IMG/VR virus record: IMGVR_UViG_3300043640_000137
Location: 1-64,000 of that record
Source: a virus
Reading direction: 5' to 3' (one strand)
DNA length: 64,000 nt
Position 1 is the first letter of the stretch; every line of letters starts with the position of its first letter. The notes under the pieces are model-generated. The model searched no databases. It saw only the letters and a program-made list of their open reading frames with translations, and was not told where the DNA came from. The translations under genes were made by a program, and so were the position numbers. Positions 2,111 to 59,589 of this stretch are shown in pieces.

Positions 2111-2679
2111 TAGACCGACCCCTTTTCGGCCGCTGCAATCGCAACATACGCAATCGCCTTCGCCTTATCATAGAGGCTATCGTGCGCCGTCGCGTTCATG
2201 ACGCTTAGAGCAATTTTCAGAGCGTCAAGTAGTTCCGGCCCATGCTCTTTCACGCGTCCCACCGCTTGCGCGGCGTTAAGCTCCGCGTCGCGCTTGGCTT
2301 GCGCTTCGCGGCATTGCCGCTTGTGCATCACGCGCGAGTACAGGAAGGCGCCGGCCGCGTCGCGCTCGAATGTTGCCGCCGCATCGCGAGCGCGCGCGAT
2401 AAGCTCGGCGTTTACTTTCGCCGCGCTATCAAGCTTGCGAGTCTCAAAGTATTCGCCCGTATGTTTATGCATGGCGTAGCGCACGCCTCGCGCAATCTGC
2501 GGCGGGTTCTTGTAAAGCCACGTTCCCGGCCCGTCTTCCGCCTCGCCCGTGTTCCGGTTCAGCCACATATGATAACGCGCGCCGTTGGCTTCAAAGGAAA
2601 GAGCGACGCGGGCATATTCGAATTGATCGCCCCGCCAATCAAAGCGCGCATTCTGAATAATGATCGTGTTCTTAGCCAT
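2110..2679 (-). CDS. Hypothetical protein
   Basis: 189 aa; AAGGAC SD; C-terminal PELLDAL motif common in phage early proteins. Confidence 0.7.
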   Translation of the reverse strand: MAKNTIIIQNARFDWRGDQFEYARVALSFEANGARYHMWLNRNTGEAEDGPGTWLYKNPPQIARGVRYAMHKHTGEYFETRKLDSAAKVNAELIARARDAAATFERDAAGAFLYSRVMHKRQCREAQAKRDAELNAAQAVGRVKEHGPELLDALKIALSVMNATAHDSLYDKAKAIAYVAIAAAEKGSV

Positions 2680-2848
2680 GGTCGAGTCCTTGGGCTTGTC
2701 AGTAGCTAGTGAGAGTAGAAGCCAATTTAAAAGGGAAGACAGAAACGGAAAGATTTTATCTAAATCTCAGCTTCCCTGGCTTCGCGAATGATTGCTTAAA
2801 GCCCTTGTTTTGGTTCCGTGTTGTAGGTGCGCAAAATTGCGTACCTAC

Positions 2849-3043
2849 TTAAATCGCGTCGCGCCAATCCCGTTTCGCGCCTTGCGCCTCGATGGTAAAG
2901 CCAAGCTTTTCAATCTCGGCGAAGACGCTGACGCGTCGCGTCTTCGATCCGACGATAGCAGCAAAGCCGGCCGCAATCTCGTTTGCGGGGTCAAGCAACA
3001 AGCGGCCGTAGCATTCGCGAATGGTGATCTTACAAGCGCGCAT
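2849..3043 (-). CDS. Hypothetical protein
   Basis: GAGGAGTC SD. Confidence 0.55.
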   Translation of the reverse strand: MRACKITIRECYGRLLLDPANEIAAGFAAIVGSKTRRVSVFAEIEKLGFTIEAQGAKRDWRDAI

Positions 3044-3054
3044 CTTCGACTCCT

Positions 3055-3255
3055 CTAAGCGTCCATATCGTGATTGTGATCCGAAACTAGTGCATCAAGG
3101 TAGGATCGTTCCTGGCGCGATTGGCGCGCGTTCCTAGCAGCTTTGCGAGCATGAGCGATAAGCTGCGCTTCGTGCATGGCTTGCCTCTTAGCGCGCGCTT
3201 CCTTGCGTTCCCGTTGCTCGCGTCCAATGCGCTGATATGCGGTTTCCGTGATCAT
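3055..3255 (-). CDS. Hypothetical basic protein
   Basis: AAGGTGG SD; tiles with neighbours. Confidence 0.5.
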   Translation of the reverse strand: MITETAYQRIGREQRERKEARAKRQAMHEAQLIAHARKAARNARQSRQERSYLDALVSDHNHDMDA

Positions 3256-3267
3256 GCCACCACCTTG

Positions 3268-4354: not shown

Positions 4355-4738
4355 CGGCTAGTTTCCTTGGCTGTCTCTGAAAAGAAAACTAGCTTGAAAG
4401 CTACCAGGACTCAAGCGTGGAATCATCGAGTCTCAAAGAAACTGACTCAATTGTAGCTTTCCTAGACTGTCAAAGACAGAGAGGGCAAACGCCGCGCCTG
4501 TCTCGCCGAATTTCTATTACTGTCTTTTCCTGACAACAGGGGAAAAGCCTTTAAAAGGTTTCTGAAACCCCTGAAAGGGAAAAGGCAAAGAATACAAGGG
4601 CATAGACAGGCAATAGGCTGATTTCCGGCTGACGGGGGCGGTAAAAAGCCTTTCAGGGGTTTTGAATGGCTGACAAACCCGGAAACGGGGTTTTATGTCT
4701 TTGATTCTGTTAACGAATCCCTTTTCGGGGTTTTGTAT

Positions 4739-4798
4739 ATCCTATAGAAGGATTAAGACCGTTTTTTAGCAAACGGCCTAATCCCTTCTATAGTGGAT
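4739..4798. repeat. 60-bp imperfect inverted repeat
   Basis: ATCCTATAGAAGGATTAAGACCGTTT-loop-AAACGGCCTAATCCCTTCTATAGTGGAT. Confidence 0.8.
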
Positions 4799-5003
4799 CG
4801 TTTAAAAGGGACGATGGCGGATGAAAGTGACGGGGCGAGGGCAGAGAGTGCCTAGCCGGGTTTCTAGGGCTTCTGCGACCCTGCCGGCGCCGATCCTAGG
4901 GGAATAGGGCTTAGGGCGCGATTGCCCGGCTTTCTGTCACTCGGAACTCTGCCGGCTCCGCCAGCTTCCTACCAGCCCCTTACCGATCCTCCGCCAGGGA
5001 GGC

Positions 5004-5298
5004 GCCCAGCACTGAAGCCGTTAACCATGTTGCCCTAGCAGAAAGCGACACGCGCGGCGTGGCCTCTGACGCCCTTGGTTTAAATCTTCACCATGATCGC
5101 CCAGCACTGAAGCCGTTAACCATGTTGCCCTAGCAGAAAACGACAAGCGCGGCGCATGCCCGGCCTTCGATGGTTTCAATCTTCACCATCGTTGCCCAGC
5201 ACCAAAGCCGTTAACCATGTTGGCCTAGGAGAAAACGACAACGCCGCCGCGCACCCGCCGCGCACCCCGCCGCGCATGGTTTAAATCTTAACCATGAT
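5004..5298 (+). repeat. Three tandem ~95-bp repeats
   Basis: GCCCAGCAC..AAGCCGTTAACCATGTTG.CCTAG starts at 5004, 5099, 5194; each unit ends in TGGTTT.AATCTT.ACCAT. Confidence 0.9.
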
Positions 5299-5880
5299 TG
5301 CAGCGCTTTGCTCGCGCGCGCTCGTCATGGCCTTGCCTGCCGGGCTGGCATGCTTTCGATTTTAACCATGACCCGGCACATCGCCGACGCTGGCGTCATG
5401 CCAAGCAATCCTTGCCTTGGAATGCTATGGTTAAGACTCTAATCATTCATGCCTTGCGATGCGACGTGCGAGCGCGCGGTCCGATGGTGAAGATTTTAAC
5501 CATAGCATGACGGGCATGGCTTGCGCTCGCATCGCTTCACCTTGCGCGCGGCAGGCATCGATCGCGTTAACCTTAACATCTTCACCATGCCGTGCTGCGC
5601 TCGCGCGTCGCGCTTCGTTAACCTTAATGCCTTAACCTTAATGCGTCGTTCACCTTAATGCGTTGTTAAGGTTAATGGCCCGTTAACCTTAACAAGTTAA
5701 CCATGTTATCGTTAATACCCCCCGTTAACCCTTTTCAAAAGCAGGGGGCACGTCGAACTCCCCAACGCTAGAGCCGTTTAAGTTTTGGTATGACCCTGGA
5801 CATAGACGGAAATAGACAGCCGAGGAAGGATTGCATGAATTTTCAATGGGGCGGCCGGCATGGTTAAAATCTTCACCATG
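5021..5880. promoter_or_regulatory. Array of CtrA-type binding sites
   Basis: TTAA-N7-TTAA at 5655-5669 and 5672-5687; nine TTAACCAT copies (5021, 5116, 5211, 5288, 5362, 5427 rev, 5496, 5697, 5860 rev). Confidence 0.65.
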
Positions 5881-56499: not shown

Positions 56500-59400
56500 T
56501 CACGCCTTCCGATACCTCTGCCCGCACCAGCCCTCGACGTTGATGGGGCAGCCGGGCAACCATGCTGGTGTCACCATCATCAAGTCCTCGAACTCTCGCT
56601 GCGTGCCGTGGCTCGCTTCGGCTTCCGAGATCACTTCGTCATGGACGGTGAGCACGATCGGATACTGCGCAACCTCGACGCGGCCCATCGCTTCGGCCAG
56701 GATGTCGCGCGAGATCGCCTGCACCACGTTCTCCGTGAGCATGCCGCCGTATGTGCGAATGAAATTCCAACGGCCGCCGAGCTTGCTATCCCGGCCCCAA
56801 TAGCCGATCTGCTTCTTGTTCCAGGGCTTGCCGTCGCGGCCGAACATCTGAACAGTGTCGAGCCGTGGCTCGCGATACCAGAGCTTGCGGCCGTTCGGCA
56901 GCTTGCACGAAAGCCATGTGCCCGCTGCATCTGTCTCGACCTGATACGTGATGCCGTTGAAGTCGAAGGCTCGGCCGGGATACATGACCGCGCTGACCGC
57001 GGCTTCTTCGAGCCCGTACCAAAGCAGCTTCACTTTCGGGAAGCTCTCGCGATAACCGTTGACGAGAAACTGTGCCTGCTCGTCGGTGAGGATGACCTTG
57101 TAGTCTTTCTTCGCCTGCTCTTGCAGCCGTTGCCAGCCCATCTGGTATCCGCAGTTGCTCGCGCAGAGCGGAAGGCCACCGCCGGGCGATCTAACGAAGA
57201 AGCGGTGCCGCGGCCCGCATTCGATCAGATCGTACACGTTCACGGGAGCGTCGGTTGAGCACTTGCTGCGATCGCGTCGCCATGCGGACGTTGCCGATTT
57301 CGTAATTGCCGTCGTTGTTGACGCGATCAATTTCGAGAGAAGGGTTGTTCCAGCCGGCAACCATTTGAATGTCGATAAGGAAGTTGCGCCGATCGAGCCA
57401 GTCGATGCAGACTTGGATTCCTCGCGCGCCGTAGTCGATGAAGCCAGGGTTATCGGAGTTGAGGCATCGGGAGAGCATACCGGCGTGGCGAGAAGCCCAC
57501 ATATTGCGGAGAGTGTCGTCAGGCATGACGTCGCCGTAGCCTTCGTTCTCTCGTATCCACTTCGCAGTCGCTTTCTTAGCGCACGCATTGCATCGCGTGG
57601 TGCGAGCGCTTCGAAGGTTTGAGATGTTGACCTGCGTTTCTGAACCGCAAACGCACACGGCGTAGACAGCGGTGATCCCACCGCGCGGGCCTGCTCGGAA
57701 GCCGGCAATCGTGAGATCGCCCAATCGTGAACCGACTGTTGGTATCTCGCGCTCGCGTTGACGACCGCAGACGCGGGCACCCAATCGTCGGGGGTCATCA
57801 TCATATGATCCGGCGTAACCCCAATCCCCGCTAAGCGGGTTGTCGGTTTCTTTCCTTGGTAATGAGGACCGTCGTGGTTCACCCATTCTTCACCGTCCCA
57901 TACCTTGTCAGCCGTGGTCACATCGACGATACGAATCCAACCTCGATCCGTAAGGACTTCGGTGTCGGCCTCGAAGCAGCCGAGGATCGTGATCTTGCCT
58001 AGCTGCCGCTCGTTCGGGTCTTTCTCTTTGTCGATCGGCCGGTTGTAGAGCTTCTGCGCCATGACGCAGTAGATGTCTGGGCCTTCTTTGCGATCCGACT
58101 TCAGGAAAGCTTCGAGCGCGTCTTCCTCCCCGGCGAGCCACATCGTCACGCGCGCCTCGATCGCGCTGAAGTCGGCGACGCGGTAGGTCTTGCCCTTGGC
58201 CGCGATGAACATGCCGCGAAGCGCAGACGCGATTGCGTCCATCGGATCGCCGTAGAACATCGTGAGCAGATCGGCGCTGCGGCACTTGATGGCCGCGATC
58301 AGGGGCTCGATGCCCTTCTTGACGATCTTCGGGTTGCCACGGGGGAAGTTGTGCGGCTGCACGAGGCGCCCAGCCCAGCGGCCGGTGCCGGCGCCGTGGT
58401 ACTGCATCATCCCGCGAACACGGCCGTCCTCGCACATGCAGTCGATCATGCGCTTCAGCTTCTTCGTCGAGCCGCGCGACAACTGCTGGCGGATACGGAG
58501 GACGCGCTTGACCTTGGGCCACGCCTCGTTGTTCTCGCTGTCGTCCAGCGGTGGGCCGCCGTTGTCGCCGATACCGGCGATCTCGTCCTCGTCCTCTTCC
58601 GGCTCTTCGTCGAAGTCTTCGTCGCCCTGGTCGATCGCTTGCTCGACGATATCCTTCGATAAGCTTTCGAGAATCACGCCGTTCTTCGCCGCCCACTCTT
58701 TGATCTTCGCGACTTGGTTGCCGGTCGTAACCTCGCCGCCCGTCAGAGTCATCAACTCGGCGGTGAGTCTCGTCTCGACGTCGTGAATGATGCTGAGCGC
58801 GGATTGGACCGCTTCGATATCAACGCGAACGCCACGCCAGTTGATCTTTTGGTCGAGTACCCAGATCACGTACTCGGCGTCGTCCATGTCGCCTATCGTT
58901 TGGCCGAGAAGGTCTTCCGCCTCGACGTCTTGATCGCAGTAGTCCTGAAGCGCCTGGAAGAGCGTACGGTCGTCGCCCCATTCGCTCGGCGTCGGCCCGT
59001 TGGCATCCGCCCATAGCGTCGGGATCGGCGGCAGGTTGAGGACCGCTTGGTAATGTGCATCCTTCTGCTCTTGCGTTGGCTTGGGCTTCTTCGGCAGCGG
59101 GTGAACGCCGTGCTGCTCAGCCCACGCGAGGATGTCCGCCTTCAGCGGCTTGCGCGGTTTGCTGAGCTTCTGAAGGAGGTACTTGCCGTGCTTATCTTTC
59201 TGGACGTCGAGATCGAGAACGCGGCCGACTTCATCCAGGCCGAGAGGCAAGGCGCGTTGTGCGCAGCGAGCTTGCGTGTCGTACCAGCGCTTCGGCATCG
59301 GAATGCCGAGCTTCTTGTGCAGTTGGTTCAGCCAGATCGACTGCTCGAACAGCGCGTTGTGCGCCTCGATCGTGCCGCCCTTCTCTACGAAGTCGATGAG

Positions 59401-59589
59401 TTCTTGGGGGAACGGCAGGCCCGGCTTCCACCGGCCACGTTTACCGCCCGGCAGCTTATACGACATCGTTTGGATGTGCGTGGACGGATGCTCGGAATAC
59501 TTCACGGCGCCGACGTTTTTAAGATCAGCCTCACTGCCGGTCTCAAAATCGACGGTGGCGCGATGAGCGCTGAGGAGCCGGTTGCTCAC
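56500..59589 (-). CDS. Family A DNA polymerase (3'-5' exo + pol) containing an intein; 754 aa after splicing
   Basis: DFET, AHNA.FE, YC.QDV; motif A ADFSAIEAR; motif B RQLGK..ILG/CGY; motif C TVHDE. Confidence 0.95.
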   Translation of the reverse strand: MSNRLLSAHRATVDFETGSEADLKNVGAVKYSEHPSTHIQTMSYKLPGGKRGRWKPGLPFPQELIDFVEKGGTIEAHNALFEQSIWLNQLHKKLGIPMPKRWYDTQARCAQRALPLGLDEVGRVLDLDVQKDKHGKYLLQKLSKPRKPLKADILAWAEQHGVHPLPKKPKPTQEQKDAHYQAVLNLPPIPTLWADANGPTPSEWGDDRTLFQALQDYCDQDVEAEDLLGQTIGDMDDAEYVIWVLDQKINWRGVRVDIEAVQSALSIIHDVETRLTAELMTLTGGEVTTGNQVAKIKEWAAKNGVILESLSKDIVEQAIDQGDEDFDEEPEEDEDEIAGIGDNGGPPLDDSENNEAWPKVKRVLRIRQQLSRGSTKKLKRMIDCMCEDGRVRGMMQYHGAGTGRWAGRLVQPHNFPRGNPKIVKKGIEPLIAAIKCRSADLLTMFYGDPMDAIASALRGMFIAAKGKTYRVADFSAIEARVTMWLAGEEDALEAFLKSDRKEGPDIYCVMAQKLYNRPIDKEKDPNERQLGKITILGCFEADTEVLTDRGWIRIVDVTTADKVWDGEEWVNHDGPHYQGKKPTTRLAGIGVTPDHMMMTPDDWVPASAVVNASARYQQSVHDWAISRLPASEQARAVGSPLSTPCAFAVQKRRSTSQTFEALAPRDAMRALRKRLRSGYERTKATATSCLTTLSAICGLLATPVCSPDASTPITLASSTTAREESKSASTGSIGATSLSTFKWLPAGTTLLSKLIASTTTAITKSATSAWRRDRSKCSTDAPVNVYDLIECGPRHRFFVRSPGGGLPLCASNCGYQMGWQRLQEQAKKDYKVILTDEQAQFLVNGYRESFPKVKLLWYGLEEAAVSAVMYPGRAFDFNGITYQVETDAAGTWLSCKLPNGRKLWYREPRLDTVQMFGRDGKPWNKKQIGYWGRDSKLGGRWNFIRTYGGMLTENVVQAISRDILAEAMGRVEVAQYPIVLTVHDEVISEAEASHGTQREFEDLMMVTPAWLPGCPINVEGWCGQRYRKA
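57154..57978 (-). mobile_element. Intein (275 aa, residues 538-812) in polymerase motif B
   Basis: Block A CFEADTEVLT..G; block B TPDH; block F VYDL; ends ASN before C+1; removal restores ITILG-CGYQMG. Confidence 0.92.
57191..57886 (-). CDS. HNH homing endonuclease nested out of frame inside the intein
   Basis: CxCG...CxxC; M..RC; YGARGIQVC..W; LEIDRVNNDGNYE.GNVR.AT..QQ..NRR; -1 frame relative to pol; start uncertain. Confidence 0.85.
   Translation of the reverse strand: MGEPRRSSLPRKETDNPLSGDWGYAGSYDDDPRRLGARVCGRQREREIPTVGSRLGDLTIAGFRAGPRGGITAVYAVCVCGSETQVNISNLRSARTTRCNACAKKATAKWIRENEGYGDVMPDDTLRNMWASRHAGMLSRCLNSDNPGFIDYGARGIQVCIDWLDRRNFLIDIQMVAGWNNPSLEIDRVNNDGNYEIGNVRMATRSQQVLNRRSRERVRSDRMRAAAPLLR

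Follow-up and report, generated by a model that had tools for sequence, protein, structure and literature searches.

The window analysed here, bases 1-64000 of the 88,524-base IMG/VR virus record IMGVR_UViG_3300043640_000137, carries on its minus strand a family A DNA polymerase gene (PolA) whose motif B is split by an intein, and the DNA of this intein is also open in a second frame that encodes a relative of phage endonucleases. We read the two together as a composite selfish element, in which a splicing mini-intein carries a separately encoded endonuclease in the -1 frame, and we place the probability of this reading at roughly 85%. It was put forward in a preliminary description of this DNA and is now supported by a layout conserved among relatives, by the pattern of selection in those relatives and by complementary structural models of the two frames.

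In the mechanism that we propose, the PolA precursor would be translated straight through the 275-residue intein, whose residues 1-100 and 241-275 would fold as a mini-intein (Hint domain), while the 140-residue middle would be a disordered spacer with no role except to stay stop-free. Splicing would restore motif B (GKITILG-CGYQMG) and yield a polymerase of 754 residues. The same DNA, read one base back and most likely through internal initiation at the ATG at 57886, would give a 231-residue endonuclease with a disordered leader of 44 residues, a Cys-rich beta-barrel, a helical linker and a beta-beta-alpha core that lacks the usual His. In co-infecting phages whose polymerase allele has no intein, this nuclease would cut near motif B, and recombinational repair would then copy the intein and its nested gene into the cut alleles, that is, the element would home. 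For the element of the window, separate translation, cleavage, splicing and homing are what we infer from the sequence.

The intein in polymerase motif B

The polymerase open reading frame (ORF; 56500..59589, minus strand, stop codon at 56500-56502) encodes a precursor of 1029 residues that includes the intein, matches the Pfam model DNA_pol_A (E 9.2e-12) and, in a tblastn comparison, aligns over its full length with a Jerseyvirus polymerase. A complete splicing domain had been described as splitting its motif B, with Cys1, TPDH, VYDL, a terminal Ser-Asn and Cys+1, and all of these are present in the ORF, which reads ...RQLGKITILG/CFEADTEVLT...TPDH...NVYDL...LCASN/CGYQMG... The class-1 intein thus delimited spans 275 residues (57154..57978, minus strand), from Cys1 (57976-57978) to Ser-Asn, with Cys+1 directly after Asn275. 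Its insertion point, which we call site b, lies five residues past the conserved Lys of motif B (GKITILG/.../CGYQMG). Splicing would shorten PolA from 1029 to 754 residues, and the intein-free polymerase of phage Xp12 reads RQMGKQAVLGLGYQMG at the position of the spliced RQLGKITILG^CGYQMG of the window.

The residues expected to catalyze splicing are well preserved. Specifically, the block B Thr-x-x-His and the terminal Asn of class-1 inteins are found in the window as T55, H58 and N275, and C1, T55, H58, D250 and N275, all present in the window copy, are invariant across 47 aligned inteins. More broadly, Cys1 occurs in 78 of 78 family inteins, 74 of which have Cys at +1 and the other 4 Ser. 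The middle of the intein has a different character: in the polymerase frame, residues 101-240 consist of 16% T, 16% S, 14% A, 10% L and 9% R, as expected from the earlier characterization of this stretch as S/T/A/R-rich. The polymerase-frame intein also matches phrog_93, named “endonuclease” (E 8.1e-13), which we read as a family that probably holds intein-bearing polymerases in the polymerase frame and not as an in-frame nuclease. The possibility of a group I intron was considered and discarded, since the polymerase frame runs through without stops and adopts a Hint fold in the model.

Structure prediction with AlphaFold2, from 47 aligned inteins and 70 aligned endonucleases, separated the two frames along the DNA. 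In the polymerase frame, an N-terminal Hint lobe (intein residues 1-100; 57679..57978, minus strand) is predicted with a predicted local distance difference test score (pLDDT) of 88-98, and a C-terminal lobe with the VYDL block and the terminal Ser-Asn (residues 241-275; 57154..57258, minus strand) with a pLDDT of 89-96. Between them, the shadow peptide of residues 101-240 (57259..57678, minus strand) is predicted to be unstructured, with a pLDDT of 38-52 and no secondary structure. With Foldseek, the intein model matched the DnaX mini-intein 7cfv (E 1.9e-4) and then the DnaB, gp41-1, RecA and DnaE inteins, at probabilities of 0.99-1.00. In the shifted frame, a core of residues 45-215 (57242..57754, minus strand) folds confidently (pLDDT 81-98), and the first 44 residues, which overlap the Hint N-lobe, have a pLDDT of about 50. 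The two predicted models are hence complementary, with mini-intein ends and a disordered middle in one frame and a folded endonuclease core in the other.

The nested gene, its relatives and the frame under selection

The nested ORF (57191..57886, minus strand, ATG at 57886-57884 and stop codon at 57191-57193) is 231 residues long and lies wholly within the intein, at a frame offset of (59589-57886) mod 3 = 2, or -1, to the polymerase; the ORF list thereby bears out the uninterrupted 231-codon frame of the preliminary description. The motifs that had been noted are likewise all in place, namely CVCG...CNAC (of the form CxCG...CxxC), YGARGIQVC..W and EIDRVNNDGNYEIGNVRMATRSQQVLNRR. The ORF matches phrog_374, named “HNH endonuclease”, over residues 38-218 (E 1.4e-31), as well as three more PHROGs with nuclease names, and endonuclease VII at only E 0.0076. 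In a tblastn search of 50,697 phage records, 789 were matched, and the best matches lay in the same shifted frame of Jerseyvirus genes annotated as “intein-containing DNA polymerase precursor” (37-38% identity, E 1e-29). Free-standing relatives of the endonuclease are widespread in phages and begin to align at about query residue 36-50. Two relatives with 28-32% identity fall under CDSs (coding sequences) annotated as dUTPase, in an Enterococcus phage (ON506928.1, 46273-46788) and a Clostridioides phage (PP767789.1, 32510-32977); they could be additional endonuclease genes, nested or inserted, or else errors of annotation.

The layout recurs in both cultivated and metagenomic phages. In all seven polymerase loci examined from Jerseyvirus and Dhillonvirus, the nested ORF has offset 2 and is open for 248-253 codons, while the third frame holds 24-30 stops; in Salmonella phage BPS11T2, for example, the match lies 1433 bases (mod 3 = 2) from the start of the polymerase gene, in a 247-codon ORF. 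Stops in the endonuclease frame of such homologues had been named as evidence against the proposal, and the frame is open in all seven of these enterobacterial phage loci. In 0 of the 7 GenBank records is the nested ORF annotated, only the intein or the polymerase being given, as had been anticipated for standard annotation. A profile scan of IMG/VR recovered 534 stretches that encode a relative, of which the best 80 were kept for analysis; an earlier scan of viral contigs with a single protein had returned three loci only, all of them free-standing genes, so that the profile was needed. In each of the best 80, the match lies at offset 2 (80 of 80) inside a longer ORF on the same strand (455-1331 residues), which is open throughout; these longer ORFs encode family A polymerases interrupted in motif B. 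The nearest relative of the window, P0001, shares 70% amino acid identity. The polymerase-frame intein middles of BPS11T2 and the window give no meaningful alignment.

Two further observations concern individual loci in this set. First, the polymerase ORF of locus L041 (L041:1819-5811) holds a second intein at a third site (...KKLYGGLL/CLGAGTQVLT...FIVHN/CENIVQAL; 4682-5506), inside which a 275-codon frame is open at offset 1 and not 2, with an HNH-like match to the window endonuclease (27% identity, E 7e-10); locus L077 has a similar second match (E 7e-16), across which no single open frame was found. Second, the polymerase of Salmonella phage SE2 (NC_016763.1, L006) is annotated as two CDSs (159-2543 and 2656-3258). 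Its span of 3100 bases is not a multiple of three and its frame is broken at about codon 794, past the intein, by a frameshift in the C-extein that is either real or a sequencing error.

Openness of a frame is by itself weak evidence in the GC-rich DNA of the window, because a second alternative-frame ORF of 262 codons (57908..58696, minus strand), rich in R, G and P, overlaps the PolA N-extein and looks like a chance ORF of such DNA. We shuffled the overlap by fixing the protein of one frame and redrawing its codons from polymerase usage in 2000 trials. With the endonuclease protein fixed, the polymerase frame acquired a mean of 3.5 stops and was stop-free in 1.45% of the trials; in the converse shuffle, the endonuclease frame acquired a mean of 4.9 stops and stayed open in 0.4%. 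In BPS11T2, of lower G+C, either frame stayed open in 0 of 2000. The double openness is thus unlikely to have arisen by chance. Homology, not ORF length, is the decisive evidence for the nested gene.

Since the window is a metagenome-assembled viral contig, and known as contigs only, one might suppose that assembly or sequencing indels shifted an in-frame endonuclease domain out of frame, an error that had been named in advance as a possible refutation. Two compensating indels would be required, and the identical offset in 80 of 80 metagenomic loci (the best 80 of 534) and in 7 of 7 isolate genomes excludes both an assembly indel and an isolated accident. Further, the same sequence is present in a soil-metagenome run (X1, which may be the source sample), where a Logan contig covers the stretch with 0 differences. 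We give the indel explanation practically no weight.

Selection was measured in relatives, among which the window's own lineage is not represented, in two sets. For Jerseyvirus and Dhillonvirus, seven pairs from five of the seven inteins (BPS11T2, SE2, SP-101, EP23 and Ent2) were compared with the NG86 ratio of nonsynonymous to synonymous substitution rates (dN/dS). In these pairs, substitutions in the overlap core concentrate on position 2 of the polymerase codons, which is the third position of the endonuclease frame (for BPS11T2 against EP23, 12/58/31 at polymerase-frame positions 1, 2 and 3), while at the intein termini the changes fall on polymerase position 3 (3/1/11 and 1/0/10). Endonuclease-frame dN/dS was 0.11-0.15 and polymerase-frame dN/dS 0.60-1.45. 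In 14 non-overlapping pairs of IMG/VR inteins, the core gave 283/1086/474 by polymerase-frame position, the N-end 58/26/139 and the C-end 38/21/121, with an endonuclease-frame dN/dS of 0.05-0.20 (10 pairs with unsaturated dS) and a polymerase-frame dN/dS of 0.90-1.68. The roughly 26 codons that are folded confidently in both frames (intein residues 75-100, endonuclease residues 45-70) have intermediate dN/dS in both. In these relatives, the core is therefore under purifying selection for the endonuclease frame, and purifying selection for the polymerase frame is confined to the intein ends. Given this substitution pattern and these ratios, the intein middle evolves, in relatives, as an endonuclease gene, with the polymerase frame there only kept stop-free, which is the outcome that a frame-specific test had been expected to give if the proposal were right.

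Probable nuclease type, candidate translation start and alternative readings

Several observations weigh against the composite reading, and they are considered here beside the alternatives to which they lend weight. The first is the C-terminus of the intein: the penultimate pair is His-Asn in 76 of 78 inteins, with Ala in the penultimate position in locus L080 and the window as the sole case of Ser-Asn (57154-57159, Ser274-Asn275). Natural inteins without the penultimate His are known to splice. Protein splicing of the window PolA is probable in our judgment, from an essential gene, an open frame and intact catalytic residues, despite this terminus. The second is that the selection figures given above come from relatives and not from the window's own lineage. 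Together with the long chance-open frame in the GC-rich PolA gene (57908..58696), these two points would suit a reading in which the nested ORF of the window is a recently inactivated relic of a once in-frame or free endonuclease, and the intein is effectively a fixed mini-intein. That reading is very unlikely, given that the window copy retains every invariant or nearly invariant residue of the 70-member family and is modelled at a pLDDT of 81-98, that the endonuclease frame stayed open in only 0.4% of the shuffles, that no in-frame endonuclease version occurs among the best 80 relatives, and that the endonuclease-frame dN/dS in relatives is 0.05-0.20.

The remaining points concern the catalytic type of the protein and its translation. 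Two regions of the nested protein stand out by conservation. The first is a Cys cluster (C78, C80, C99 and C102; 57581..57655, minus strand), which may bind zinc, within a small N-terminal beta-barrel domain (model residues 43-97) that resembles Tudor, SH3 and KOW barrels at Z about 4.5. The second is a predicted beta-beta-alpha motif of residues 185-213 (57248..57334, minus strand), with EIDR (D187-R188), Y195, N199, R201 and N211, in which strands 185-188 and 200-203 and helix 205-210 follow the order of the HNH motif. Across 70 endonuclease sequences, C78, C80, C99, Y152, G153, R155, R188 and Y195 are invariant and D187, N199, R201, N211 and R213 are conserved in at least 90%, and the window copy retains all family-conserved residues. 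C102 is invariant in the 7-sequence alignment A1, but in the alignment of 70 its column is neither invariant nor nearly so. N199 and N211 provide the conserved Asn of HNH, or His-Me finger, nucleases. At the end of the first strand, where the catalytic His is expected, stands D187-R188, with R188 invariant in the 70.

Database comparisons place the protein less firmly. Pfam HNH models matched 0 of the 70 family members; Pfam found no nuclease family in the nested ORF or the intein, and NCBIfam nothing relevant. A search of PDB sequences with the family profile gave I-HmuI as its sole nuclease match, which was not significant (E 0.41), and with the C-terminal domain by itself no match reached E <= 10. 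Foldseek found no match to the endonuclease model in the PDB at E <= 0.001. In an exhaustive structural scan, PacI (3m7k_A) ranked second, at Z 5.1, a value in the range that the scan tool warns can reflect a common arrangement (root-mean-square deviation 2.7 over 78 residues, model residues 117-214). The label “HNH”, given in the preliminary description through an assignment to the phage HNH homing endonucleases, rests on PHROG family names, which are untested annotations (phrog_374, E 1.4e-31); the Pfam result and the replacement of the catalytic His by an invariant Arg qualify it.

PacI itself is described as lacking the catalytic His, whose part is played by a Tyr from the inter-strand loop (Jablonska et al. 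2017, PMC5714182). Because the invariant Y195 lies in the loop between the two predicted strands, we regard the nested protein as a member of the His-Me finger superfamily that lacks the His and may be PacI-like, and because the canonical His is absent, the predicted nuclease activity rests on analogy. The likeness to PacI (PDB 3m7k/3ldy) comprises the C-terminal domain, the absent His and the Tyr in the inter-strand loop (PMC5714182); the two differ in that no sequence similarity is detectable, and the correspondence of their Tyr residues is putative. The invariant R188 in the place of the His, the lack of any Pfam HNH match in the 70 and the lack of a significant PDB sequence match could instead mean that the nested protein is real and selected and yet no nuclease, perhaps a DNA-binding or intein-helper protein. 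We hold this to be unlikely, in view of the precedent of PacI with its loop Tyr (PMC5714182) and the invariant Y195, of PacI as the second-best structural match, and of the patchy distribution of the intein and its identity above that of its flanks, both of which fit active homing; the free-standing relatives are, further, widespread in phages in the manner of homing endonuclease genes.

The candidate start codon of the nested gene (57884..57886, minus strand) is formed by the wobble A of a Glu codon and the TG of intein Trp32 (GAA-TGG). An ATG farther upstream in the window (57899-57901) is shut by a TGA at 57890-57892 and is formed with GTA, a rare Val codon (2 of 45 Val codons in the exteins). 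Among 72 distinct inteins, the open endonuclease frame has its first ATG at intein nucleotide 77 in 29, at nucleotide 92 in 26 (the window included) and at nucleotide 98 in 12, and the A of each such ATG is the wobble base of the codon that precedes a conserved splicing-domain codon for Trp (or Cys). A wobble-A ATG is found in 71 of 72 inteins, against 31.7 expected from their own wobble-A frequencies (23% overall; binomial p 2e-24, with rows that are not phylogenetically independent). With the candidate start codon in the wobble position before its Trp codons, the splicing domain and the nuclease initiation site would be co-encoded. Shine-Dalgarno-like sequences are strong at the nt-98 starts (GGAGG/AGGAG), and the one ahead of the window ATG at 57886 is weak (GGGA/GGTGA), the last of the points that weigh against the composite reading.

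This weak sequence, and the tetramer “A AAG” in the relevant span of 25 of the 72 inteins (the window among them), would agree with production of the endonuclease as a fusion, by -1 ribosomal frameshifting within the N-terminal splicing lobe and not by internal initiation. Frameshifting would have no need of the ATG, which 71 of 72 inteins possess where 31.7 would be expected; only 9 of 72 contain a canonical X XXY YYZ heptamer, its place varies among them, and the window has none; the upstream stops of the endonuclease frame also stand at variable places; and the local RNA fold of the hairpin region is ordinary (z -0.92; 34 of 200 shuffles fold as well). We consider frameshifting improbable. 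It is unsupported as a mechanism of the family, so that internal initiation at the ATG at 57886 is better supported, as an unproven interpretation of these sequences.

Signs of mobility, known systems and meaning

The evidence for mobility covers enterobacterial phage relatives of the element, as distinct from the window's own clade. BPS11T2 intein DNA is found in 166 phage records (163 at >=80% coverage) and its N-extein DNA in 654 (631 at >=80% coverage). Compared with BPS11T2, EP23 is 83.9% identical in the intein and 69.7% in the N-extein, and fPoEco01 92.0% and 80.9%, respectively. Intein-free polymerase alleles, which the preliminary description had suggested seeking, occur in Xp12 and in the Jerseyvirus Shelanagig, whose allele is identical to the predicted spliced product of BPS11T2. 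In these enterobacterial phages, the scattered occurrence of the intein and its higher similarity relative to the flanking DNA would fit active homing. A 202-base contig from a second soil metagenome (run X2) that joins 57066 to 57976 and skips 909 bases was not counted as an intein-free allele, because its ends mismatch the intein borders; one side of the joint has 24 letters at 80% likeness. As a separate observation, the neighbouring helicase gene of Jerseyviruses has its own annotated intein (L011:3851-3891 in Ent2; L092:4564-5309 in Shelanagig); even Shelanagig, with no intein in its polymerase, carries it there.

The insertion point varies within motif B. Of 78 inteins with both junctions, 52 are inserted at site b (Lys+5, that of the window), 25 at site a (Lys+1, that of the Jerseyviruses) and 1 at Lys+2. 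Specifically, the Jerseyvirus and Dhillonvirus precursors (BPS11T2, Ent2, SE2 and EP23) share with the window a homologous intein and nested ORF (37-38% amino acid identity) at the same offset, and differ in an insertion four codons upstream (GKA/C...HN/CELGLGY) and a His-Asn C-terminus. On a FastTree phylogeny of the endonucleases (local support values, midpoint root, all 110 rows kept), a branch with support 99 separates all 72 nested endonucleases and P0001-P0005 from the free-standing and unknown-context relatives; the insertion-site label needs at least 8 changes on this tree. As far as a quick, unrooted tree can suggest, the pattern agrees with one capture, after which the target site repeatedly shifted by small distances. 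A fuller history, in which a PolA mini-intein captured a free-standing gene for a His-less (PacI-like, possibly Tyr-dependent) endonuclease once, long ago, and the dual-coding unit has since moved repeatedly among neighbouring motif B codons, is one that we offer tentatively, with less confidence than doubt.

The general architecture is not new, and the element belongs to a recently described kind and, within it, to a large overlooked family that includes cultivable phages. Out-of-frame endonucleases in inteins of actinobacteriophages are already in print (bioRxiv 10.1101/2025.01.02.630785), in a preprint whose authors suggest that they arose when a mini-intein was invaded by a free-standing endonuclease gene, and predict such inteins to be commoner than known; the strings “start codon” and “ribosom” are absent from its main text. 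As described there, these inteins resemble ours in being contiguous, with a same-strand, third-frame endonuclease ORF where an in-frame one would sit and an unfolded in-frame middle; our element differs in its location in family A polymerase motif B, in phages of Gram-negative bacteria and metagenomic viruses, and in its nuclease family (phrog_374). The features of an out-of-frame intein endonuclease are all found here, namely a same-strand ORF in another frame, an unfolded in-frame middle and, in relatives, purifying selection. The cyanobacterial dnaX intein provides a second precedent, with an out-of-frame (+2) LAGLIDADG endonuclease supported by dN/dS (Phillips, DeSimone and Gogarten, bioRxiv 10.64898/2026.09.14.751524), whose authors credit Gorbalenya 1998 with the first proposal. 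That preprint describes, as we find here, an overlapping +2 ORF, purifying selection, a sporadic distribution and secondary invasion of a mini-intein, in its case with LAGLIDADG and a cellular host, in contrast to a His-less beta-beta-alpha type in phage polymerases at several neighbouring sites. Finally, Arsenault et al. 2025 (PMC11855218) describe the ShiLan domain, an HNH endonuclease concealed out of frame within the gene of a phage DNA methylase. It shares with our element an HNH-type gene in the alternative frame of an insertion, a stop-free host frame and its omission from annotation; as described, it has no splicing domain and the host protein keeps the loop, whereas here a complete Hint domain flanks the overlap. 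Full-text searches of a limited literature collection found no paper that describes this nested gene within PolA motif-B inteins, be it for Jerseyviruses or for any other group; the supplementary tables of the 2025 preprint may list other host genes or endonuclease families. The impression that this architecture is rarely reported thus holds in that it is in print for actinobacteriophage inteins, and fails in that it extends to cyanobacterial dnaX and to many phages here.

Out-of-frame intein endonucleases are, then, no rare curiosity of actinobacteriophages and cyanobacteria: one family occupies the PolA genes of at least 166 GenBank phage records and of all the best 80 IMG/VR contigs. For annotation, this is a warning that inteins scored as “mini” or “decaying” may hide an intact nuclease in another frame. 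If it is true that the enzyme uses a tyrosine, it would represent a catalytic type so far undescribed among homing endonucleases. Further, the family includes well-studied, easily grown phages of Salmonella and E. coli and hence offers a tractable system for asking how a gene buried in another frame is translated, how two proteins share about 230 codons, and whether a mini-intein with a captured free endonuclease acts as one homing unit, which the “splicing first” view of intein origin would have it do.

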